64,000 nucleotides of DNA from Candidatus Nomurabacteria bacterium. Its GTDB lineage: Bacteria > Patescibacteriota > Minisyncoccia > Phycocordibacterales > UBA9973. This document shows, piece by piece, positions 9,673-55,925 of the stretch; the stretch's first letter is position 1; each line of letters starts with the position of its first letter. Position numbers and translations under genes: made by a program. The notes beneath the pieces were generated by a model. It did not search any database. It was not told the origin of the DNA and worked only from the letters and a program-made list of their open reading frames with translations. The stretch covers positions 1,597-65,596 of the forward strand of contig JAIOPO010000004.1 in the NCBI GenBank assembly GCA_021413905.1, in the 5' to 3' direction.

Positions 9673-10833
9673 TTATTTTATATTTTCTATTTTTAATATA
9701 TTTTCGTAAATACAAAAAACTTTCTCGTTAAAACATTCTTTTTTTAAAACCGCTTCTCTGCTCGCAACACCCATATCAATACATTCTTCTTTATTTGAAT
9801 ATAAATAATTTAATGCTTTTAAAATATCATCTGATTCACCTTCACGAACAATAATACCATGTTTTCTATCTTGAAAAAAATTCTCTGTATCTGTTGCATT
9901 TTTTGTGGTAATAACAGGCACACCGCAAGACATAGACTCCGCAACTGAACGACTAAAACCTTCGGTAAAAGAAGGTAATATGGTTACATCCGAAGAGCCT
10001 AAAATAAATTCCGGATTATTCACTATTCCCAATTCTTTTATTGAAATATCTTTTTTTATTATTTTTTCGTATTTTTCTTTCATCTCAATCGGCCAAAGAT
10101 TTTTTTTACCAAGAATAATTAATTTTTTATTAGGTATATCAAATTCTTGCCACGCATCTAAAACATATTGCAAACCTTTTAATATTCCAATATTAGAAGC
10201 AGGAAAAACAACAGTAAAGTAATTCTCATTTTTTTTTAATGGAACAAATCTTTCGGTATTAATATCCAAATTAGCAACAAAAATTTTATTTTCAGGGTAG
10301 CCATTTTCTACATATGTTTTTTTTGAAAAAGGAGACAAAGCAATTAAATAATCCATATTAAAAGCATAGTCTGCTTCAATAGTGTTTTTAGGGATTATTT
10401 TTATATTATTTTTTTCTAATTCTTTTTTCATTAAACTTTCGGTATGCAAAGGATGAGAGTTTACAGCAATACCAATACATAAATTATTATTTGTTTTGTT
10501 TATATTTATAGTCTTTGGAAATTTAGGAGGATGAAAAAAAACAATTTTATCTTTTAAAATAAATTTACTTGCAAAAAAATCAAAAAAATATTCTTCTATT
10601 TTCCTTGAAGGAAAATCTTTAAAGAATTTACCAAAACCTGCAATCAAAAAATGTAAAAATAATGGTAATGCTGAATACTGATAAAAATCTTTTTTTTTAT
10701 CAGTACCAATACGAGAAATGACCCCAAATATAGCTTTTTTATTTTCAAAATAATCAATCACTCCTGCAATATCCTCAGTTTTCAAATTTCTATATTTTCC
10801 CCTATCTGCATAAGTAACAAATAATGATTTCAT
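9673..10833 (-). CDS. Glycosyltransferase family 4
   Basis: The C-terminal motif PSFTEGFSRSVAESMSCGVPVITTKNATDTENF supports the call. I prefer the start at MKSLFVTYADRG (10833), which avoids overlap with the divergent flippase gene. Confidence 0.75.
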   Translation of the reverse strand: MKSLFVTYADRGKYRNLKTEDIAGVIDYFENKKAIFGVISRIGTDKKKDFYQYSALPLFLHFLIAGFGKFFKDFPSRKIEEYFFDFFASKFILKDKIVFFHPPKFPKTININKTNNNLCIGIAVNSHPLHTESLMKKELEKNNIKIIPKNTIEADYAFNMDYLIALSPFSKKTYVENGYPENKIFVANLDINTERFVPLKKNENYFTVVFPASNIGILKGLQYVLDAWQEFDIPNKKLIILGKKNLWPIEMKEKYEKIIKKDISIKELGIVNNPEFILGSSDVTILPSFTEGFSRSVAESMSCGVPVITTKNATDTENFFQDRKHGIIVREGESDDILKALNYLYSNKEECIDMGVASREAVLKKECFNEKVFCIYENILKIENIK

Positions 10834-12130: not shown

Positions 12131-13097
12131 AAATTTTAAAAAACCTAAAACAATAATAGTAACGGGTTGTGCTGGTTTTATAGGAAGTAATTTTGTAAAA
12201 GTTTTCAAAAAAGAATTTCCAAAAACAAATATAGTTGGAATTGATGATTTGTCTACAGGAAAAATTGAAAATATAAGCAATCAAATAAAATTTTACAAAA
12301 AATCTATTTTAAATGAAAAAGAAATGGAAAAAATATTCAAAGAACATAAACCAGAATACATTTTTCATTTCGCAGCATTACCAAGAGTTTCATATTCAAT
12401 AGAAAATCCAATAAAAACAAGTGAAATCAATATCACAGGAACAATAATTCTTTTAGAAAAATCAAAAAAATACAAAATAAAAAGATTTATATTATCATCG
12501 TCATCATCTATTTACGGTGGAGCAAAAAAAATGCCAACAAGTGAAAACAATAATCAACCAAATCCAAAAAGCCCTTACGCTCTTCAAAAATATGTAGACG
12601 AACAATTTTGTAAATTATTTAGTGATTTATTTGAAATGGAAACAATCGCATTAAGATATTTTAATGTTTTTGGACCTGGTCAATATGGAAAATCTGCATA
12701 CACTACGGTTATTTCTGGATGGCTGGAATCAATATATTTTCCAAAAAACAAAAAAGGATTTATCGAAGGTGATGGTAGCCAAACTCGTGATTTTTGTTTT
12801 GTTGAAAATATAGTTTTTGCAAACATATGTGCAATGAAAGCCACTGGAGTATTTAAAGGTGAAATTTTTAATATCGGTAATAATATAAGAATTAGTTTAA
12901 AAGAAGTAAAAGAAAAAATAGAAAAATATACAAATAAAAAATTGGAGCTTGAGAAAAGACCAAGTAGATTCGGTGATGTTAAACATACACACGCTGACAT
13001 TAAAAAAGCAATGAAATATTTAAAATATAAACCATTAATTAGTTTCTCAGATGGACTAAAAAAGACAATAGAATGGTTTGAGATGAGAAGAAAATAA
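12120..13097 (+). CDS. NAD-dependent nucleotide-sugar epimerase/dehydratase (extended SDR)
   Basis: It has the Rossmann motif TGCAGFIGSNF, the catalytic YALQK (YxxxK) and SSSSIYG. Confidence 0.9.
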   Translation: MKTRNFKKPKTIIVTGCAGFIGSNFVKVFKKEFPKTNIVGIDDLSTGKIENISNQIKFYKKSILNEKEMEKIFKEHKPEYIFHFAALPRVSYSIENPIKTSEINITGTIILLEKSKKYKIKRFILSSSSSIYGGAKKMPTSENNNQPNPKSPYALQKYVDEQFCKLFSDLFEMETIALRYFNVFGPGQYGKSAYTTVISGWLESIYFPKNKKGFIEGDGSQTRDFCFVENIVFANICAMKATGVFKGEIFNIGNNIRISLKEVKEKIEKYTNKKLELEKRPSRFGDVKHTHADIKKAMKYLKYKPLISFSDGLKKTIEWFEMRRK

Positions 13098-13106
13098 AAA
13101 ATTATA

Positions 13107-13973
13107 TTATTCTGCAATAATATTTATTAATGGTATTGAATTATATTTTTCAATATAATCAGTAACTTTGTTTAAAACCTCAATCTGTTCTGGTTCTAAT
13201 ATTTTCATTCTTTTTGTAGCAATATAAAAATTGTCCTTATCCCCTTCTAAATAAAAAGTGTTAAAAAAACGTTCGTATATTTTCTTGGTAAAATCAGGAC
13301 TTGGATTAACATTTTGATTTAAACTAAATTCAAAATAATCTAACGCTGATTTATATTTTTCAGGACTAGTTGTAGCCAAAACCAAACCCATATAATAATG
13401 ACCTTCTGGAATTGAATTATTTTTATTTAAAGAATTATTCAACAAATCAATTGCTTCTTTTTTCATACCCCTATTACTCAAATTAAAAGCATAAGCGTAG
13501 ATCACGTCTTGTCTTTCTGGTGCCAAAGCAAAAGCTTGCTTGTAGTATTTTAAAGCTTTTTCATACATACTTTTATCATTATATAAATATCCATTTTGAT
13601 CATAAGCTTTTCCTAAAGAAAGATAATAATTATAATAAGCTGGTTTTTCTTTATCTAAATAATCAGAAAATTTATCAATAGCAAAATCAAATAAAGGATT
13701 TGATTGAGTCAAATCTCCGTTTTTATATTTGTTAAAAAATTCATTTACCATTGTATACCTGATCTGTCCTTGTATATAAGTATCAGGTGAAAATATAAAA
13801 GTTTTTTTAGTAAATTTCAAAGGATCATTTAATAAAATTGAAGTAAAATGTTTTGAAAACGTAACTGTTTGTATAAAAGGTATAAATGTCCAAAAAACAA
13901 AAAAAGAAGAAATAACAAAAGTGAAAAAATAACTAAATATTAATAATAAAATCTCTGTATTATTTTTTTTCAT
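13107..13973 (-). CDS. Membrane-anchored TPR-repeat protein
   Basis: It has an N-terminal TM helix and TPR-like repeats (LSLGKAYDQNGYLYNDKSMYEKALKYYKQAFALAPERQDVIYAYAFNLSNRGMKKEAIDLL). I prefer Met12 as the start. The gene overlaps the upstream Wzy_C gene. Confidence 0.6.
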   Translation of the reverse strand: MKKNNTEILLLIFSYFFTFVISSFFVFWTFIPFIQTVTFSKHFTSILLNDPLKFTKKTFIFSPDTYIQGQIRYTMVNEFFNKYKNGDLTQSNPLFDFAIDKFSDYLDKEKPAYYNYYLSLGKAYDQNGYLYNDKSMYEKALKYYKQAFALAPERQDVIYAYAFNLSNRGMKKEAIDLLNNSLNKNNSIPEGHYYMGLVLATTSPEKYKSALDYFEFSLNQNVNPSPDFTKKIYERFFNTFYLEGDKDNFYIATKRMKILEPEQIEVLNKVTDYIEKYNSIPLINIIAE

Positions 13974-49982: not shown

Positions 49983-51758
49983 TTACATAATATCAACAAT
50001 CCTAAGCCTCAGCTCTTCACGACCGCGGAAACGAGATAAATCAAAAGTCGCCAGTAAGTTTACAGACAATCCTTCGGCTAAAGGAATTTTAAAGGAATCT
50101 AAGCCAGAGAAAAATGAAATCGCTGTGGCTTTTTTGTTATTATCGGAAAAAATAATTTCTAGATGTTCTTGTGAATTATTTTTTCCGAATTTTTTCAATT
50201 TTTCTATTTTCACATTTTCAAAAAGAAAAATAGGCTTTGGATTTTCACAACCAAATGGCGCCATTTTTTCTATTTCTTTCCAATTTTTCATATTTACGTC
50301 AGTGAGAGATAATTTTAAATCAAAAAGTGTGGGAGATTGCTTTTCTGTAGCCGAGGACTGTCTGAGCGTAGCGAGTTCCGCAGGCAAAGAAAAAATATCA
50401 CCTGCACTTTTTGCACGAATATTTACAAAAGAACTAGACAAAGCTTCCTCCAAAAAATGCACTTTTTCTGTATGCACTGTAAATCCTCCCGCGCCTTCGT
50501 GCCCGCCAAATTCCAAGAAATACTCACGTGTTTCTGTCATCAACTCAACAACAGACACTGAGCCATCTGACCGACAAGAACCTTTTATAAAATCATTCTC
50601 ATCTTTACCCCACACAAACACGGGCTTTTTATGTTCATCACAAATCTTACCCGCAACAAGACCGAGCACACCCACTTTCCATTCCGGATGCCCTATAACT
50701 ATCACTTCGTTCATTTCACGTTTCTCGAATTTTTTATTCACATCTTTCATAATACCAGCAACCATTTTTTTTCTTTCGTCATTTATTTTCGTCAAATGAT
50801 TTGCCAAAATTCCTGCCTCCGTTTCATCTTGCGTTGCCAACAATTCAAAAGCTCGGCGCGGATCATCCATACGCGATGCAGCATTAAGTCGAGGCGTCAC
50901 CATAAAACCAATATCGTCTTCAGAAATATATTTCTGATCTATGCTCATCTTTGCCAAAAGTTTTTGCAAACCCGGACGCGGAGATTTCCTAAAAACTTTC
51001 AAACCAAAATATGCAATCACTCTATTTTCTCCCAACAACGGCACCATGTCAGAAAGTGTCGCTAGCCCCGCCATATCAAGCAACCATTTCTCCCAAGAGA
51101 GAGGCGCGGGTATTGTGTTTTCTGTAGCCGAGGACTGTCTGAGCGTAGCGAGTTCCGCAGGCAAAGGAAACACAATACCCGCGCCTCCATACTTCTTCAA
51201 AAAACCTTGCACCAATTTAAAAACAACCCCAGACCCACATAACATTTTTTCCGAATATTCGTCTACTTTCGGATTCAAAATAGCATACGCTCGCGGAAGC
51301 TCTGCGTGCGGAATATGGTGATCTGTAATTATAACATCAATGCCGTACACAATAGCTTGAGCTACTTCTGCCACAGCTGTGATGCCTAAATCAATCGTGA
51401 TTAAAAGCTTCACACCGTCTGCGTCCATTTTTTTTACCATTTCCAAATTCAAACCATATCCTTCAGAATTTCTTTGCGGAATATATACTTCAAAATTTTT
51501 ATAATTTAATTTATTAAAAAAGTCATTCAATATCACCGCGCCTGGAATGCCGTCGCAATCATAATCCGCATATACCAATATTTTTTCTCCAGCTTCCATC
51601 GCTTCAAAAATCCGCACGCAAGCTTTTTCCATATCGCGCATTAAAAAAGGATCGTGCATATCGCGTTCATAATTTGGATTTAGGAAAATCTCTTTTTGCT
51701 CGGCTGTTGTAATGCCTCGTTTTTCCAATAATTCATTTAATAGGCTACTTGGTTGCAT
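49983..51758 (-). CDS. recJ: Single-stranded-DNA-specific exonuclease RecJ
   Basis: It has DHH motifs (YADYDCDG, ITIDLGI, ITDHH) and the DHHA1 motif GGHEGAGG. I prefer the start at MQPSSLLNELLEKRGI (51758). The ORF-track extension to 51908 would run across the HIT gene start. Confidence 0.9.
   Translation of the reverse strand: MQPSSLLNELLEKRGITTAEQKEIFLNPNYERDMHDPFLMRDMEKACVRIFEAMEAGEKILVYADYDCDGIPGAVILNDFFNKLNYKNFEVYIPQRNSEGYGLNLEMVKKMDADGVKLLITIDLGITAVAEVAQAIVYGIDVIITDHHIPHAELPRAYAILNPKVDEYSEKMLCGSGVVFKLVQGFLKKYGGAGIVFPLPAELATLRQSSATENTIPAPLSWEKWLLDMAGLATLSDMVPLLGENRVIAYFGLKVFRKSPRPGLQKLLAKMSIDQKYISEDDIGFMVTPRLNAASRMDDPRRAFELLATQDETEAGILANHLTKINDERKKMVAGIMKDVNKKFEKREMNEVIVIGHPEWKVGVLGLVAGKICDEHKKPVFVWGKDENDFIKGSCRSDGSVSVVELMTETREYFLEFGGHEGAGGFTVHTEKVHFLEEALSSSFVNIRAKSAGDIFSLPAELATLRQSSATEKQSPTLFDLKLSLTDVNMKNWKEIEKMAPFGCENPKPIFLFENVKIEKLKKFGKNNSQEHLEIIFSDNNKKATAISFFSGLDSFKIPLAEGLSVNLLATFDLSRFRGREELRLRIVDIM
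50321..50413 (-). repeat. In-frame GC-rich hairpin element inside recJ, copy A (93 bp)
   Basis: It shares a 49-bp core (50341-50389, ttttctgtagccgaggactgtctgagcgtagcgagttccgcaggcaaag) with copy B. The core is flanked by imperfect inverted arms whose outer 9 bp pair perfectly (caaaaagtg / cactttttg). Confidence 0.8.
51101..51187 (-). repeat. In-frame GC-rich hairpin element inside recJ, copy B (87 bp)
   Basis: It carries the same 49-bp core (51118-51166). The core is flanked by a perfect 20-bp inverted repeat: gaggcgcgggtattgtgttt (51101-20) and aaacacaatacccgcgcctc (51168-87). Confidence 0.85.
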
Positions 51759-51794
51759 AAAGACAATTTTAACACAGTTTGATATAATATTGAT

Positions 51795-52205
51795 ATGGAA
51801 GAGTGTATATTTTGTAAAATAATAAAAGGGCAAATCCCTAGCACGAAAATTTATGAGGATGATAAAACCCTCGCCTTTTTGGATATTGCGCCAGTAAACA
51901 TCGGGCACGCTTTAATAATACCTAAAGAACATTATGCAAATATATATGAAACTCCGGAAGACACTATGTCAGACATAATAAAAGTAGCTAAAAAAATATC
52001 TCTCGCTGTGAAAGAAGCAGTAAAAGCAGAAGGAGTAAATATTACAATGAACAATAACCACGCTGCCGGGCAAGTAATATTCCATTCACACATTCACGTC
52101 ATCCCCCGTTTCTCAAACGATGGCTTTGAACTCTGGCACGGTAAAAGAGCATACGAAGATGACGAAATGAAATCTGTTGCTGAAAATATTACTTCAAAGC
52201 TTTAA
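51795..52205 (+). CDS. HIT-family nucleotide hydrolase/transferase
   Basis: It has CIFCKII and the histidine triad HSHIHVIP. Confidence 0.9.
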   Translation: MEECIFCKIIKGQIPSTKIYEDDKTLAFLDIAPVNIGHALIIPKEHYANIYETPEDTMSDIIKVAKKISLAVKEAVKAEGVNITMNNNHAAGQVIFHSHIHVIPRFSNDGFELWHGKRAYEDDEMKSVAENITSKL

Positions 52206-53232
52206 TTAAATTTTTATCATTAAAAAATTTAGAAAGTTTATACCCCCTACAATGAGACAAAATTCCTAAATAAGAAAACTTTGACTCTTTGAATAAATTT
52301 TGTTTCACTTTTCGTAAAATTCTTTTTTTAGTGGAAGTTCGCAAAACTTTATAATGTGTAAGAACTACATAACCAAGAAAATCCACTCCTTGCGATACTT
52401 TTCTAATTTCAACTTTTTTGGGATGTAATTTTAATTTAAGTTTCTCTTCTAAAAATTCGGAAATTTTTGGTAAAAGTAATTCAAGAAAATATTTATCTTT
52501 TGAAACGCACACGAAATCGTCACAATATCTTGCATAATATTTTACTTTTAAAACATGTTTCATAAACTGATCAAAAACATTCATATAAACATTTGCAAAA
52601 AGTTGACTTGTCACATTACCAAGAGGAAGACCTTTGCCTTCTAATTTTTCAAAACTTTTTATAATATTTTCTAAAAGCCATTTGGTTTCCAAGCACTCAA
52701 TTTTTTCAAAAAGAATTTTCTTTAAAATTTCGTGATCTATTGAATCAAAAAATTTAGAAATATCACACTTTAATACCCAAGCATTATTTTTATAATTTTT
52801 TGTTTCTTTTCTTAAAAAACTTTCAAGACGCTCAACTCCCGCGTGAGTGCCTTTATTAAATCGGCAAGCATAAGAATCATAAATAAAAGATGGATCATAA
52901 ATTTTATAAAGTTGGCGAAAAACAGCTTGATGCACTACCCTGTCTCGAACCTGTGCTTTGTGTATATGTCTTATTTTGGGGTCGCAAACATAAAAAGGCA
53001 CATATGGCTCATTTATATATGTTTTTCTTCGTAGAGAAAAATGAATATCCAAGATATTTTTTTCTAAATTAAATTCAAATTTCTGTATATCAGTTTTTTT
53101 ATTTTTTCCACGACGAAACTCTCGCCACGCAGACAAAAGATTGGAAGTGGAAATAATATGATAGAATAAATCACTATGATGACCCCCCCACTTACTTCCA
53201 ATAAAATTATCGAGCTCCCTGTTATTCTCCAT
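52189..53232 (-). CDS. Diversity-generating retroelement reverse transcriptase
   Basis: RT motifs present include VRDRVVHQAV, SYACRFNKGTHAG and KCDISKFFDSIDH. It also has the DGR-diagnostic LPLGNVTSQLFANVY ([ILV]GxxxSQ) and YARYCDDFV (YxDD). A TR/VR pair lies adjacent. Confidence 0.9.
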   Translation of the reverse strand: MENNRELDNFIGSKWGGHHSDLFYHIISTSNLLSAWREFRRGKNKKTDIQKFEFNLEKNILDIHFSLRRKTYINEPYVPFYVCDPKIRHIHKAQVRDRVVHQAVFRQLYKIYDPSFIYDSYACRFNKGTHAGVERLESFLRKETKNYKNNAWVLKCDISKFFDSIDHEILKKILFEKIECLETKWLLENIIKSFEKLEGKGLPLGNVTSQLFANVYMNVFDQFMKHVLKVKYYARYCDDFVCVSKDKYFLELLLPKISEFLEEKLKLKLHPKKVEIRKVSQGVDFLGYVVLTHYKVLRTSTKKRILRKVKQNLFKESKFSYLGILSHCRGYKLSKFFNDKNLIKALK

Positions 53233-53562
53233 GTAAAGAGATTATATAAAATAATATATCAATTGGGAATAAAAATGCCGAAACAAAATAAATTGGGCAT
53301 ACATAAAGTGTTGGAAGAAAAAACATTACTAATACTTACTACATTAATTGATTCAGCACTTAGAAGTAGGCAAGACAAAATACAAACTCTAAATCAAGCT
53401 CGTAGAGATATTGAAGTCTTGAAACATCTTATTCGCCTAGAATATGAATTAAATATAATACAAGAGAAATCTTATATAAATTTATCAGCGATGCTTGAAA
53501 ATATCTCTATGATGACAACCGGTTGGATAAAGTCTCTCGGAACACAAAAGCCCCTCTATTGA
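53176..53562 (+). CDS. avd: Avd-like accessory variability determinant (four-helix-bundle protein)
   Basis: LYKIIYQLGIKMPKQNKLGIHKVLEEKTLLILTTLIDSA...LKHLIRLEYELNII...ISMMTTGWIKSL follows the four-helix-bundle/Avd pattern, and helix 1 needs the upstream residues. An extended -10 (TGATAGAAT, 53159-67) lies 8 nt before the ATG at 53176. The alternative start is 53275. The long form overlaps the RT 5' end by 57 nt on the opposite strand. Confidence 0.72.
   Translation: MMTPPLTSNKIIELPVILHVKRLYKIIYQLGIKMPKQNKLGIHKVLEEKTLLILTTLIDSALRSRQDKIQTLNQARRDIEVLKHLIRLEYELNIIQEKSYINLSAMLENISMMTTGWIKSLGTQKPLY
53241..53246 (-). promoter_or_regulatory. -10 box (TATAAT) 8 nt upstream of the RT start codon
   Basis: The minus strand reads ttTATAATctctttacATG. 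There is no SD, so the arrangement looks leaderless. Confidence 0.4.
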
Positions 53563-53865
53563 GGAGCTTTATGAGAAACTTCTGACGGAGACCGTTGTCG
53601 GAATTACGGTTGTCGCGATTGTCGTTGCTGATGTTGAACTGACCATTGTCGTTGCGGTTCATGTTCATCGCGTTACCGTCTGAATCGAGGGCTCTTTCTG
53701 TGAGTGTCCACCAATATCACCACATATCTTTTTCAAAATATGTTGAATTTTCCGGCACTAAAGCCGTCTCTGTTTGGAATCTAAATTCCCTAGACTCTCG
53801 CAGGCAGTTTCTATTGTTTGGCAAACTGTCATCACATTTTTTAAACGGATCAGCTTAACAGCCGA
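53545..53865 (-). ncRNA. Predicted DGR TR-containing RNA (promoter-proximal spacer, TR, 3' hairpin)
   Basis: The upstream bound is the extended -10 at 53870-53878. The downstream bound is the hairpin GCTCCTC-aata-GAGGGGC (53567-53550) followed by TTTT on the minus strand. The transcript limits are inferred, not observed. Confidence 0.45.
53583..53693 (-). repeat. DGR template repeat (TR), 111 bp
   Basis: It aligns colinearly with 53958-54068 at an offset of 375. In the VR reading frame it contains 11 AAY codons (8 AAC, 3 AAT, hand count). Confidence 0.88.
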
Positions 53866-53869
53866 GTTA

Positions 53870-53878
53870 ATTATAACA
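53870..53878 (-). promoter_or_regulatory. Extended -10 promoter (TGTTATAAT) for the TR RNA
   Basis: On the minus strand, ttTGtTATAATtaac follows the target-gene terminator directly. Confidence 0.45.
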
Positions 53879-53885
53879 AAATTGT

Positions 53886-53926
53886 AAAAAAAAGTTCCCC
53901 TTGAATTAAAAAATCCAAAGGGAACA
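53886..53926 (-). terminator. Rho-independent terminator of the DGR target gene
   Basis: Minus-strand hairpin GTTCCCTTTGG-attttttaatt-CAAGGGGAAC followed by TTTTTTTT. It may also serve as the hairpin that DGR homing often needs just 3' of the VR. Confidence 0.7.
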
Positions 53927-53944
53927 AGATAATAGTCAAGAGGT

Positions 53945-54691
53945 TTAGAAACCTACTTGACGGAGACCGTGGTCGGAAAGACGGCCGCCGCGATGGCCGC
54001 TGCCGATGTAGAACTGACCATAGTCGCGGCGGATCATGAACATCGCGTGCCCGCCTGAATCGAGGGCTGCAAAACGTGTGAGTCCTTTGACATCATACAT
54101 TTTACTAGTCTCAGTCCGATGACGAAAAGCGGCGATGATGCCTTCTTTCGGCACCATAAACTTGGTGCCGGCTTCGATACCGTCATCATAGCTTTTGCCT
54201 AGCATGTCGGGCTCGTCTCCGCCGACGTGGCACATGGGATAGTCGCCTTCGGGGCGCGCTTGCTGTTCGCGAATTGCATCGGTGATGCTGTCGTAATATT
54301 TCCATACAGCATCCTTTCCGAACTTTTTCGCATAGGCTTCAAGTGCCTGATCCTCGGTGATGTCGGAAAAAATAACCTCAAGGCGAGACATTTTTTCAGT
54401 TTTCACCGGCAAAGAAAGTTTCGTCCAGTCAACCTGACGGTTGAAGAATTTTTTGTAAAATATTTCTATCTTACGTTTTTCTTCAGTCCAGTGGTCAACT
54501 TTTACACCGAGAACTTCTTCGCAGAATTTCTCGGTCAGTTCTTCAAGCTCTTTTTTGTCACTCAAGACAAAGTGTTGCGCTTGGTCAAAACTGAAACCTC
54601 CATCGCCCAGCACACGAATAATGGTGCCGGCAATTTTAAAACCAATTGCAGACAACTGCCCCGTGGTTGCGGGTTTTTGCTGATTTGTCAT
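53945..54691 (-). CDS. DGR target (variable) protein, 248 aa, C-terminal VR
   Basis: It contains the VR in its last roughly 41 codons (...ALDSGGHAMFMIRRDYGQFYIGSGHRGGRLSDHGLRQVGF*). A strong SD (AAAGGAGGAGTCTT-ATG) precedes the start. Its GC content and codon usage differ sharply from those of its neighbours. Confidence 0.88.
   Translation of the reverse strand: MTNQQKPATTGQLSAIGFKIAGTIIRVLGDGGFSFDQAQHFVLSDKKELEELTEKFCEEVLGVKVDHWTEEKRKIEIFYKKFFNRQVDWTKLSLPVKTEKMSRLEVIFSDITEDQALEAYAKKFGKDAVWKYYDSITDAIREQQARPEGDYPMCHVGGDEPDMLGKSYDDGIEAGTKFMVPKEGIIAAFRHRTETSKMYDVKGLTRFAALDSGGHAMFMIRRDYGQFYIGSGHRGGRLSDHGLRQVGF
53958..54068 (-). repeat. DGR variable repeat (VR), 111 bp
   Basis: It has 20 hand-counted mismatches to the TR. 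Nineteen are at TR adenines (coding/minus strand) and one is at a TR thymine. It ends 10 nt before the stop codon. Confidence 0.88.
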
Positions 54692-54857
54692 AAGACTCCT
54701 CCTTTAAAAAGAACATTAATTTGTTGAGCCAAAAACCACAAAGGTTATCAAGGGTGCTCATACCCTTAATATCTAAAGTATACACCTTTTAGAGTAAAAA
54801 GTCAAGAGCTAAAAATAGCTGTAAAATAAAGCTTTTCCCTATGTCAGACATATGTAT

Positions 54858-55925
54858 TTATTTCAAAGCTTTAATTCCAGGCAAGGTGCCATTAGCGAGA
54901 AAGTCCAGTGTCGCCCCTCCGCCAGTGGAAACAAAAGAAAATTTGTCTTCCATTTTATTTTCAGAAATTAAAGATACCGTGTCTCCTCCACCAATAATGC
55001 TTTCAGCTTTAGAATTGGCAACCAACTTCAAAACACTTTTTGTGGCTCCACCATTCAATACTTCGTATTTCCCCAAAGGTCCGTTCCAGAGAATCATTTT
55101 AGCTTTCCTTATTATTAGTGCGAGATTTTTTATTGATTCAGACCCAACATCTAAAATGATTTCATCTTTTTGTACTTCAGTTACTTTTTTATTTATAAAA
55201 GTCCCATCAGTTTTTTTTACCACTACATCAGTAGGTAAAATAAGTTTTTTATTATTTATAAATTTATTAATCCCAAAGTCACTTTCATCAACAAGAGACT
55301 TACCCACTTCATAACCTTTCGCTTTCAAAAAGTCATTTACTAGAGCGCCCCCTATGAAAATATTATCAGCGAGATTTAAATACTTTTTAATCAAAGGCAT
55401 TTTAGTGGAAAACTTCGCTCCGCCTAGAATAAACAAAAATGGATGCTTTGGATTTTTCATAACCTTGGAAAGATTTTTCACTTCTTCTTCAAGCTGAAAG
55501 CCCGCATAGCTGGGCAAATATTTTGGAACGCCGACAACAGATGCATGCGCTCTATGAGAAACAGAAAATGCGTCATTCACATAAATGTCTGCGAGACTTG
55601 CCAAATGTTTCGCAAAATCTTTATCATTCTTTTCTTCACCGGGGAATTTACGAACATTTTCAAAAAATTCTATTTTGTTTTTAGGAATTTTAGAAAGAGT
55701 AAAAAAATTTTTAATCACTGGCTCAAGTGAAGCTGTACCGTCTTTACCTAAATGAGTTAGCAAAATTACTTGCGCACCTTTTTTTAATAAATAATTTATA
55801 GTTGGCAAAGATTTGCGAATACGAAAATCATCTTCAACCTTGCCATTTTTAATAGGCACATTGAAATCCACCCTCACGAGAACTCTTTTACCTTTTATGT
55901 TTTTTAATTTTTTGATTGATTGCAT
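54858..55925 (-). CDS. pgk: Phosphoglycerate kinase
   Basis: Supporting segments are RVDFNVP, LTHLG, AFSVSHRAHAS, GGAKFSTK and the C-terminal STGGGATLDFL. Confidence 0.95.
   Translation of the reverse strand: MQSIKKLKNIKGKRVLVRVDFNVPIKNGKVEDDFRIRKSLPTINYLLKKGAQVILLTHLGKDGTASLEPVIKNFFTLSKIPKNKIEFFENVRKFPGEEKNDKDFAKHLASLADIYVNDAFSVSHRAHASVVGVPKYLPSYAGFQLEEEVKNLSKVMKNPKHPFLFILGGAKFSTKMPLIKKYLNLADNIFIGGALVNDFLKAKGYEVGKSLVDESDFGINKFINNKKLILPTDVVVKKTDGTFINKKVTEVQKDEIILDVGSESIKNLALIIRKAKMILWNGPLGKYEVLNGGATKSVLKLVANSKAESIIGGGDTVSLISENKMEDKFSFVSTGGGATLDFLANGTLPGIKALK

Follow-up and report, generated by a model that had tools for sequence, protein, structure and literature searches.

Why should one diversity-generating retroelement (DGR) carry a GC-rich target gene beside an AT-rich reverse transcriptase (RT) gene and avd? 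The question is raised by a locus in the window, the whole stretch of 64,000 nucleotides that we analyzed. A preliminary description of the sequence had noticed the break in composition and proposed that a foreign target and template repeat (TR) are serviced by a native RT/Avd pair. The locus is a complete Patescibacteria-type DGR. Its inserted cassette occupies 2,650 bp on the minus strand (52208..54857), where one reads in order the promoter, the leader, the target, a terminator, a structured RNA, the TR, avd (on the opposite strand), and the RT. The interval covered by the initial proposal (53563-54715) contains four minus-strand features: the TR, a spacer of 251 nt, the target ORF, and the target Shine-Dalgarno (SD) site.

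The protein content is that of a DGR. The RT (52189..53232, minus strand, 347 aa) matches RVT_1 of Pfam (E=1.9e-25), and its translation shows LGNVTSQ, a DGR-type motif 4 ([I/L/V]GxxxSQ), and YCDD (YxDD). In NCBIfam, whose set has no dedicated DGR-RT model, it gives only subthreshold matches to group II, retron, and Drt models. Its closest homologues are all from Patescibacteria. The probable avd accessory gene (53176..53562, plus strand, 128 aa) is transcribed divergently from the RT gene, the two ORFs sharing 57 nt at their 5' ends. Its product matches the expected families over their full length, yet under the curated cutoffs: DivGenRetAVD of NCBIfam (NF033474; E=4e-12, profile positions 1-104, 46 bits for a cutoff of 80) and bAvd of Pfam (PF22296; E=4e-9, 37.3 bits for a cutoff of 40). 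The position of avd is kept in all related cassettes, which supports the assignment. The target (53945..54691, minus strand, 248 aa) has no match in Pfam or NCBIfam. Its N-terminal part is helical, and its C-terminal domain has a C-type-lectin fold with the variable repeat (VR) at the C terminus, where the alignment of the target family has its hypervariable columns. Pfam and NCBIfam revealed no endonuclease domain in the cassette, which also has no integrase or transposase; the DGR RT is its sole polymerase- or recombination-related gene.

The VR (53958..54068, minus strand, GC 0.640) makes up the final ~37 codons of the target, and the TR (53583..53693, minus strand, GC 0.514) has 36 adenines among its 111 nt. 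The two differ by 20 mismatches over 111 nt, 19 of which are at TR adenines, and their last 13 nt, ACGGTCTCCGTCA, are the same and give the VR a GC-rich, IMH-like 3' end. The RT, together with Avd, would copy the TR RNA into cDNA and misincorporate opposite adenines, and this cDNA would then replace the VR, a step that is seen here through its footprint. For a comparison of VRs within a population, the protein cluster offers one member, from one contig. A hairpin followed by a T-run (53894..53925, minus strand) starts 20 nt past the target stop as a predicted intrinsic terminator, and the same place is occupied in all related cassettes. Besides being a terminator, it may be the homing-enhancing hairpin of the VR. 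A structured RNA domain lies directly 5' of the TR (53698..53863, minus strand). It shows covariation and has five helices, one of them a long-range closing helix. In an alignment of 15 cassettes, its 40 pairs are paired in 96.6% of the cells and 24 of them have compensatory changes. None of 500 shuffles reached these values, and slid controls were 32-52% paired. Rfam gave no match across 52000-55000, the domain included. The extended -10 box TGTTATAAT (53870..53878, minus strand) is a putative promoter of the TR RNA, a role that we read off the sequence. It was missed by the consensus promoter scan because it has no -35 element, and a -10-like box is kept at this position in related cassettes.

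How strong is the break in composition? Sliding GC, GC3, and codon statistics, as proposed at the outset, show a clear discontinuity at the target. The target has a GC of 0.486 and a GC3 of 0.518, against 0.284 and 0.198 for the RT and 0.315 and 0.271 for avd, the latter two being host-like. The 55 other ORFs of the window have a mean GC3 of 0.240 (sd 0.078), which places the target at z=3.6, and its third-position C is 0.33 versus 0.10±0.05 in other genes. The peak 300-nt GC of all 64 kb falls within the target (0.577; the runner-up is 0.487, and the window mean 0.328 with an sd of 0.061). The hand counts of the preliminary description were close to the computed values, and the contrast that they suggested is real. 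The low GC of the RT also stands, but not the figure of 20-25%, since the RT averages 28% and reaches 23-26% in some stretches. The codons said to be unusual in the target (GGC, CGC, GCC, and CTG) are ~4 to 5.5 times commoner there than elsewhere, and its synonymous codon usage is the most divergent of 58 genes (0.405 nats per codon; the rest have 0.138±0.052). The body of the target, by which we mean the target minus the VR, has a GC3 of 0.493 versus 0.240 in the host and a GC12 of 0.446 versus an expected 0.395 (z=3.3), and is thus off the host at all three codon positions. The RT is at host expectation (GC3 0.198 versus a predicted 0.195; GC12 0.326 versus 0.329). The insert as a whole is therefore not atypical in the way expected of genomic islets: the atypical parts are confined to the target, TR, and VR, and the RT and avd fall within the host range.

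The target also differs in its translation signals. It has a Shine-Dalgarno-like site, AAAGGAGGAG (54696..54705, minus strand), 6 nt ahead of its ATG, and a GGAGG or AGGAG site is absent from the other 57 window genes, as the initial reading had noticed. Its impression that neighboring genes look leaderless holds as well: a TATAAT-like box ends 3-12 nt before the start codon in 26 of 58 ORFs, RT and avd included. The RT has its TATAAT box 8 nt upstream of a leaderless-looking start, and the promoter scan placed a promoter-like site at 53269-53241 (minus strand). The target is preceded by a Sigma-70-type promoter, TTGACT-17-TATACT (54777..54805, minus strand), and a leader of ~80 nt. In the family, a TTGACTTTT promoter is kept ~100 nt upstream of the target, as are the leader and the SD. 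Across the target family, 19 of 38 targets have an SD, versus 5 of 468 host genes (Fisher p=9e-20). The 16S rRNA 3' end, against which the target's GGAGGAGTC would be checked for an anti-SD, is absent from the window and from the fetched loci. Part of the Parcubacteria has been reported to be without an anti-SD sequence altogether (PMC9297842).

Are the RT and avd native, as their composition had suggested? A 19-bp direct repeat, the tail of PGK, bounds exactly the cassette. The right copy, AATTAAAGCTTTGAAATAA (54858..54876, minus strand), is the current 3' end of PGK (protein ...GIKALK*), and the left copy, AATTAAAGCTTTGAAGTAA (52189..52207, minus strand), provides the final codons of the RT ORF (...LIKALK*). 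The copies are identical at 18 of 19 positions, with 15 nt exact; 30 shuffles gave matches of no more than 11 nt. The RT ORF thus terminates within the HIT-side copy with PGK's own IKALK*. RT orthologues end 3-10 residues past the conserved KGYKIxK motif, and their tails are unrelated. Since a repeat copy forms the final codons of the RT, the end of the RT and the end beyond the target promoter appear as the two ends of one insertion. Three relatives (L051, L052, and L053), whose PGK is 76-78% identical to that of the window, keep the order TIM-PGK-HIT-x-RecJ-RNaseH, x being one small ORF without a family match, and there PGK adjoins HIT with no DGR between them. In L053 the 3' ends of PGK and HIT overlap by 17 nt, and the left repeat copy of the window overlaps the HIT 3' end by 17 nt likewise. 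The cassette probably inserted at such overlapping 3' ends, duplicating 19 bp of the PGK tail. The whole 2.65-kb cassette probably entered as one discrete unit between PGK and HIT. The RT and avd are not native, because both are inside the repeat-bounded insertion and the site is empty in the three relatives.

Other cassettes have comparable limits. The L029 cassette sits between 84-bp repeats of the prfB 3' end whose starts are 2,679 bp apart, and its RT reads into the repeat likewise. L034 and L035 have only 2,655 bp in common, at 92% nucleotide identity, between unrelated flanks. Their left ends are at -166 and -162 relative to the target ATG, and the repeat-defined end in the window is at -166. 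No flanking repeats were seen at the ends of these two cassettes, and detectable repeats occur in only 2 of 23, so that we rejected them as a general trait of the cassettes. We found no synteny of the flanks with other cassette-bearing loci.

If the cassette came as one unit, how common is the contrast within it? Among related Patescibacteria cassettes, RT GC3 differs from that of the host by -0.078 on average and exceeds it in none of 20, and the target body minus RT GC3 averages +0.114 and is positive in all 18 adjacent cassettes. All 6 loci of a sister family have a higher GC3 in the target than in the RT, as in L045 (target 0.87, host 0.57, RT 0.42). In L001, with a host GC3 of 0.51, it is the RT (0.31) and avd (0.36) that look foreign. 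The DGR of Bordetella phage BPP-1, taken as a control, shows the same direction of bias, weakly (GC3 of 0.859 in mtd, 0.821 in brt, and 0.713 in avd). AT-rich RT/avd and a GC-richer, SD-led target are thus found family-wide whatever the GC of the host, and are no mark of a swap in the window. The contrast described at the outset remains, but it has lost its diagnostic value for a foreign target/TR on a native RT/avd, since 24 of 24 other cassettes are alike. The window target body is the extreme of the family, +0.25 GC3 over the host, and an outlier with z about 3.

We therefore favor, with moderate confidence, the view that the target contrast is a trait of the cassette family and that the window received it in a one-unit insertion, its large excess stemming from a GC-richer ancestry and still equilibrating. 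The donor would be a GC-richer relative like L001, and the target would be incompletely ameliorated. The RT and avd would have begun near the equilibrium of the AT-rich recipient, so that any donor excess is no longer visible in them. The target GC12 of 0.446 is close to the 0.453 of L001 and above the prediction from its own GC3 (z=1.6), which fits a falling GC in which GC3 drops first. One caveat is that a joint arrival from an L001-like donor, with the target ~50% ameliorated, leads one to expect an RT GC3 of ~0.25, and the actual 0.198 is ~2.4 standard errors lower, for a donor that is assumed. In addition, several targets are far above any plausible Patescibacteria donor, L045 with its GC3 of 0.87 among them, which hints that a directional force, and not ancestry alone, acts on the targets.

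Could such a force account for everything? The target GC could have been lifted in place, with no foreign ancestry, by a gene-specific pressure such as codon or mRNA selection tied to SD-dependent translation, or GC-biased repair or conversion at a gene that is targeted by the DGR and prone to recombination. The target exceeds the host GC3 in 29 of 34 family members and, in the sister family, does so strongly at 5 of 6 loci; an orphan target, that of L037, is +0.24 over its host although it is at an ancestral syntenic site; and, besides the extreme case of L045, the sole SD-led gene of the window is the target. In the narrow family, however, the excess over the host is almost all in the VR (last 40 codons, +0.18 and +0.36; rest, +0.00 to +0.07), where GC is especially high because the TR/VR codons are built as AAC or NNC. 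We thus rejected a whole-gene excess for the targets of this family and redid the comparison on the non-VR body, whose excess averages only +0.027, with some targets 0.15 below the host. Ordinary translational selection is not the cause, since host ribosomal-protein genes are not C3-rich (C3 is only 0.08-0.12 in the L7/L12, L10, and S6 genes, and likewise in the SSB gene). Nor is an adenine-specific depletion of the target by the RT, since T3 is depleted as well as A3 and C3 is elevated. Finally, GC12 is ahead of GC3, which fits a falling rather than a rising GC. A pressure acting entirely in place is therefore an unlikely explanation.

One could also imagine that a target and TR module from a GC-richer cassette displaced the original target and TR beside an AT-adapted RT/avd, before or after reaching the site. 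This would suit a target far above host expectation in GC3 and GC12 next to an RT exactly at it, and modules are exchanged in the family. L034 and L035 have an RT and avd sister to those of L004 and a target N-terminal part from another subfamily; L028 and L037 represent one chromosomal site with and without TR-avd-RT; and L037 and L023 have targets of different subfamilies at one syntenic site. Hence, the modular exchange that was first suspected here does occur elsewhere in the family, but the window shows the same nearest relatives throughout and no breakpoint. Separate searches with the target and the RT, suggested at the outset as a comparison of taxonomic affiliation, gave best matches in Patescibacteria for both, often on the same contigs. 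By gene, the target is nearest to L022 and L001, the RT to L001, and avd to L001 and L003. The cassette is colinear over ~2.46 kb, from the target through the TR and avd to the RT, with L003, L001, L004, and L022 (single HSPs, 74-77% nucleotide identity). RT/avd and target/TR differ neither in affinities nor by a breakpoint, at a resolution limited by nearest relatives that are only 70-82% identical in amino acids, and the known sequences include no close donor above 72% amino-acid identity. The swaps observed in the family have their breakpoint inside the target (~54145-54196 in window coordinates), with the C-terminal domain, VR, and TR staying with the RT. Moreover, RT/avd share the repeat-bounded insertion of the target, and the contrast that the swap is meant to explain is present in all 24 other cassettes compared. 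We regard such a displacement in the window as quite improbable. A chimeric metagenome assembly joining two organisms near 53560 and 54700, which the sharp GC change and the origin of the sequence (a single contig of a metagenome-assembled genome) might suggest, is very unlikely indeed, because the order and spacing of target, hairpin, RNA domain, TR, avd, and RT recur in more than 25 independent assemblies and the repeat (15 nt exact, 18/19 overall) is judged too short and imperfect to mislead a k-mer assembler, and it is further opposed by the TR/VR match with its adenine-specific differences and by the synteny of both flanks with relatives.

The probable one-unit insertion of a family-wide cassette can be placed among known systems. 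The closest known kind are the cellular DGRs of Patescibacteria (CPR), "DGR clade 2" of Roux et al. 2021 (PMC8144416) or the "CPR set" of Wu et al. 2018 (PMC5758913). As in these, the RT homologues are Patescibacterial, the element is cellular without viral relatives, the target is small, lacks a Pfam annotation, and has a C-terminal VR, and the DGR genes evolve largely as one cassette. Our search of viral contigs gave no relatives of the target and hence no phage vehicle. Wu et al. already inferred horizontal transfer from the atypical GC of entire DGRs (PMC5758913). In the CPR DGR literature that we compared (PMC8144416, PMC5758913), we found no split within the cassette between an AT-rich, leaderless RT/avd and a GC-richer, SD-led target, no discrete unit of 2.65 kb that has defined ends and is flanked by duplications, and no covarying RNA domain 5' of the TR.

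The prototype, the BPP-1 DGR (mtd-avd-TR-brt), shares with the window the adenine-specific transfer from TR to VR, the Avd partner (probable in the window), and a GC-rich VR 3' end followed by a hairpin. Unlike it, the window has the order target, TR, avd, and RT, in which avd is inverted relative to its TR and RT neighbors; its TR is ~250 nt downstream of the target, with the structured RNA domain ahead of it; the sequence 3' of its TR is no dedicated spacer but runs antisense to avd; and the element is chromosomal, whereas that of BPP-1 is on a phage. Horizontally acquired genomic islets and their amelioration are the subject of the model of Lawrence and Ochman. As in ameliorating islets, GC3 and codon usage are atypical, the site is empty in relatives, direct repeats flank the insert, and GC12 lags behind GC3. 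The window differs from typical islets in that one gene of the cassette alone is compositionally atypical and in that there is no integrase or transposase.

There is also a resemblance, and we take it as no more than that, to non-LTR retrotransposons and other target-primed retroelements: flanking duplications that differ in length (19 bp in the window, 84 bp in L029) and an element that ends at the 3' end of the RT gene, with an A/T-rich 3' tail. Unlike them, the cassette has no identified endonuclease domain, carries its own promoter, and has repeats in 2 of 23 cases. DGR RTs are known to self-prime on their own RNA, not on nicked DNA. It is conceivable, if doubtful, that the ~2.65-kb cassette of this Patescibacteria DGR lineage is a self-mobilizing retroelement. 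In that case, a full-length sense RNA, with the target leader at one end, the TR and antisense avd in between, and the open-ended RT gene at the other end, would serve the DGR RT as a template, and the resulting copy would enter the chromosome at new sites. Such insertions would yield target-site duplications of variable length, such as those of the window and L029, and an RT ORF running into host sequence.

These results have consequences for how DGRs are annotated and how they spread. A strong GC and codon break within a DGR should not be taken to indicate chimerism or misassembly; for the cassettes of this lineage it is normal. The target seems to be read out via a conserved promoter, leader, and SD, as judged from their sequences, amid genomes that are almost SD-free and largely leaderless. 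Neither the Bordetella model nor Rfam contains an equivalent of the covarying RNA domain that is joined to the TR on its 5' side. CPR DGR cassettes have the character of discrete insertions of 2.65 kb, with defined ends and, in two cases, duplicated host-gene tails, which bears on how DGRs spread without an integrase of their own. If self-mobilization were true, DGRs would not be wholly immobile, domesticated retroelements, and composition and translation signals would travel with the cassette.

The interval 53563-54715, for which a modular exchange had been proposed, is part of a complete diversity-generating retroelement (DGR) in a window whose overall GC is 0.328 and whose source, a Candidatus Nomurabacteria contig, agrees with the names on 100%-identical proteins. 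The reverse transcriptase (RT; 52189-53232, minus strand) has an RVT_1 domain (E=1.9e-25) with the LGNVTSQ and YCDD motifs. The best matches of the accessory gene avd (53176-53562, plus strand) are Avd families, covered at full length with scores under the curated cut-offs. The target gene (53945-54691, minus strand) ends with the variable repeat (VR; 53958-54068, minus strand), which differs from the template repeat (TR; 53583-53693, minus strand) at 20 of 111 nt, 19 of these being TR adenines. A terminator-like hairpin (53894-53925) stands 3' of the target and a sigma-70 promoter about 100 nt 5' of it. RT and avd lie divergently on opposite strands with their 5' ends overlapping by 57 nt (53176-53232), an overlap also present in the related loci L004, L028, and L025, and each has its own -10-like box close upstream.

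The compositional break described preliminarily is real. The target has a GC of 0.486 and a GC3 of 0.518, against a GC3 of 0.240±0.078 in the 55 other ORFs of the window (z=3.6), and its C3 is 0.33 versus 0.10±0.05. Its codon usage diverges most among 58 genes (0.405; others, 0.138±0.052), with GGC, CGC, GCC, and CTG enriched about 4 to 5.5 times, and it contains the 300-nt GC maximum of the whole window (0.577; runner-up, 0.487). The second-highest local GC near the DGR comes from recJ (49983-51908, minus strand), where two GC-rich palindromic elements of about 90 nt (50321-50413 and 51101-51187) are inserted in frame; their arms of 34 to 37 nt are 19 nt apart, their 65-nt cores are 91% identical, and each adds a peptide "...LPAELATLRQSSATE...". 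RT and avd are host-like, as had been thought, with GC3 values of 0.198 and 0.271 inside the host range. The observation that the target alone is led by a Shine-Dalgarno (SD) site also stands: AAAGGAGGAG lies 6 nt 5' of its ATG, and every other gene of the window lacks a GGAGG/AGGAG site. The neighbors are frequently leaderless in pattern, with a -10 box 3 to 12 nt before the start codon in 26 of the 58 ORFs, RT and avd included. More generally, the host genomes are nearly SD-free (GGAGG/AGGAG in 0 window host genes and in 5 of 468 host genes over all loci), and a TATAAT-like box at this distance in about 45% of window ORFs suggests that leaderless mRNAs may be widespread in the host.

Is the target then a foreign gene served by native partners? 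Its composition is indeed foreign, but neither RT nor avd is native, and the whole cassette is a single insertion. In three relatives, whose PGK is 76 to 78% identical, the gene order TIM-PGK-HIT-x-RecJ-RNaseH is maintained (x, one small ORF, matches no family), and none of them has a DGR between PGK and HIT, which adjoin each other (97-nt gap in L052, 17-nt overlap in L053). In the window, these genes are separated by 2,650 bp (52208-54857) flanked by a 19-bp direct repeat of the PGK 3' end, AATTAAAGCTTTGAA[A/G]TAA. The copy at 54858-54876 is the real PGK end; the one at 52189-52207 provides the final RT codons (...LIKALK*, compared with ...GIKALK* in PGK) and runs into the HIT end in the same way as PGK in L053. 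The RT orthologues stop 3 to 10 residues past a conserved KGYKIxK motif, with tails that are unrelated, and hence the right-hand cassette end leaves the RT ORF open. In another locus, L029, the cassette lies between two copies (9782-9865 and 12461-12544; 94% identical; 2,679 bp from start to start) of an 84-bp stretch of the prfB 3' end, and the RT reads into this repeat. In both the window and L029, the RT ORF lacks an intrinsic stop codon and ends within a duplicated host tail. Loci L034 (755-3408) and L035 (8476-11123) share only 2,655 bp, at 92% nucleotide identity and with sharp boundaries, in two different genomic contexts with unrelated flanks. Their left ends lie at -166 and -162 relative to the target ATG, compared with -166 in the window, and no flanking repeat is visible at either. 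L029 and the L034/L035 pair thus confirm, independently of each other, that the unit is discrete. Flanking repeats are detectable in only 2 of 23 cassettes, and no relatives were present in the viral contigs searched. L029 also carries, 3' of its right-hand repeat, a second and diverged target gene (12735-13529), which has a VR-like copy of its own, 70% identical to the first VR, and a terminator hairpin conserved at 92%, suggesting that one RT may serve two targets.

The composition contrast characterizes the cassette family as a whole. The target family comprises 75 homologues, every named one from Patescibacteria; we sampled 43 loci through target homologues and six sister-family cassettes through more distant RTs. 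All cassettes have the order target, hairpin, TR, avd (reversed), and RT. The GC3 of the RT is on average 0.078 below that of the host (0 of 20 RTs above it), that of the whole target 0.074 above it (positive in 29 of 34), and the target exceeds the RT in 20 of 20. In L001, where host GC3 is 0.51, the RT has 0.31, avd 0.36, and the target 0.71; RT and avd look native in the window only because its host is AT-rich. In the narrow family, the target excess is mainly in the VR (+0.18 and +0.36 in the last 40 codons, +0.00 to +0.07 elsewhere), which results from the TR/VR codon design. Without the VR, the target body exceeds the host by only 0.027±0.076, and still exceeds the RT in 18 of 18. A large body excess is found in five of the six sister-family loci, e.g., L045 (target 0.87, host 0.57, RT 0.42). 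Two others are in obviously mobile contexts: L046 adjoins a DDE transposase, a restriction-modification system, and a Bro-N gene, and L049 a serine recombinase, a tyrosine integrase, and AbiEii. In the BPP-1 control, the bias has the same direction and is weak. Upstream of targets, the SD is conserved together with a leader motif and a TTGACT promoter: GGAGG/AGGAG precedes 19 of 38 targets against 5 of 468 host genes (Fisher p=9e-20), and it stands before 2 of 18 avd genes and 0 of 20 RTs. This 5' region (54692-54810 in the window; 150 nt upstream in L001-L037) has a conserved TTGACTTTT promoter, followed by an approximately 80-nt leader that includes a short palindrome (e.g., GAACAATATTGTTC in L003), then GTTCTT(T)AA as a motif, and finally (A)GGAGGAGTC(A)AA-ATG. 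Its GAGTC part is kept even in targets without GGAGG and may be regulatory, instead of or besides acting as an SD.

The window target remains the family extreme. Its body GC3 of 0.493 is 0.253 above the host (z about 3 versus the family), followed by L037 (+0.236) and L001 (+0.193). Its body GC12 of 0.446, near the 0.453 of L001, likewise stands out from what the host predicts (z=3.3), and the RT matches the host prediction exactly for both GC3 and GC12. In the target, GC12 is slightly ahead of GC3 (z=1.6), the pattern expected of a GC-richer gene decaying to an AT-rich equilibrium. Together, these values show a GC-richer history or pressure in the target that the RT does not display. We consider it probable that the extra GC reflects incomplete amelioration after transfer of the whole cassette from a GC-richer relative. 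A GC-raising pressure acting in place seems unlikely given the lead of GC12. A separate swap of target and TR, as first proposed, is rather doubtful. Modular change is real in the lineage: homology to L034, L035, L029, L012, and L008 begins only at about 54145-54196 of the window, and the module exchanged there is, by alignment, the target N-terminal part and leaves out the C-terminal domain with its VR and TR. Likewise, at one syntenic site (L028 10914-12480 compared with L037 10951-11052), L028 has target, TR, avd, and RT and L037 the target only, this orphan being strongly GC-enriched (+0.24 GC3 over host); L037 and L023 have targets of different subfamilies there. Yet this is not what the GC break of the window shows. 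Its target is nearest to L022 and L001, its RT to L001, and its avd to L001 and L003; the cassettes align as single colinear HSPs of about 2.46 kb (L003, 77%; L001, 76.6%; L004, 75.5%; L022, 74%), and neither comparison gives any sign of a swap inside the cassette. Misassembly is very improbable for a cassette with this gene order throughout its family. The GC break is largely accounted for by a DGR cassette that was inserted horizontally and is intrinsically heterogeneous; its target probably retains part of the GC of a richer donor.

The cassette also contains a conserved and well-supported structured RNA domain (53698-53863, minus strand; about 165 nt), directly 5' of the TR and downstream of a -10 box. 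It comprises five helices, one of them a long-range closing helix. In the alignment of 15 cassettes (the window with L001, L003, L004, L005, L007, L008, L009, L012, L021, L025, L028, L029, L035, and L037), 96.6% of the cells of 40 pairs are paired and 24 of the 40 pairs have compensatory changes, values matched in 0 of 500 shuffles; slid controls were 32 to 52% paired. Rfam has no match to it. The domain is retained after the L037 orphan target, with no avd or RT nearby. The sequence itself shows the DGR anatomy, the footprint at adenines, the presence of separate expression signals, and that the cassette was inserted as a unit. Transcription from the target's own promoter would give a leadered mRNA that is SD-dependent and ends at the hairpin, a second RNA starting at the TGTTATAAT box (53870-53878) would fuse the structured domain to the TR, and RT and Avd would come from divergent leaderless mRNAs.

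The element belongs to the Patescibacteria-restricted cellular DGR clade (PMC8144416) and to the "CPR set" (PMC5758913). These surveys used the GC deviation of whole DGRs as evidence of transfer and remarked on cassette co-evolution. In the DGR literature that we compared, we found no description of a systematic within-cassette split in composition and translation signals, of a discrete unit of 2.65 kb that carries duplicated tails of host genes, or of an RNA domain 5' of the TR. About half of Parcubacteria have lost the anti-SD (PMC9297842), which makes the conserved SD-like site of the targets worth testing.
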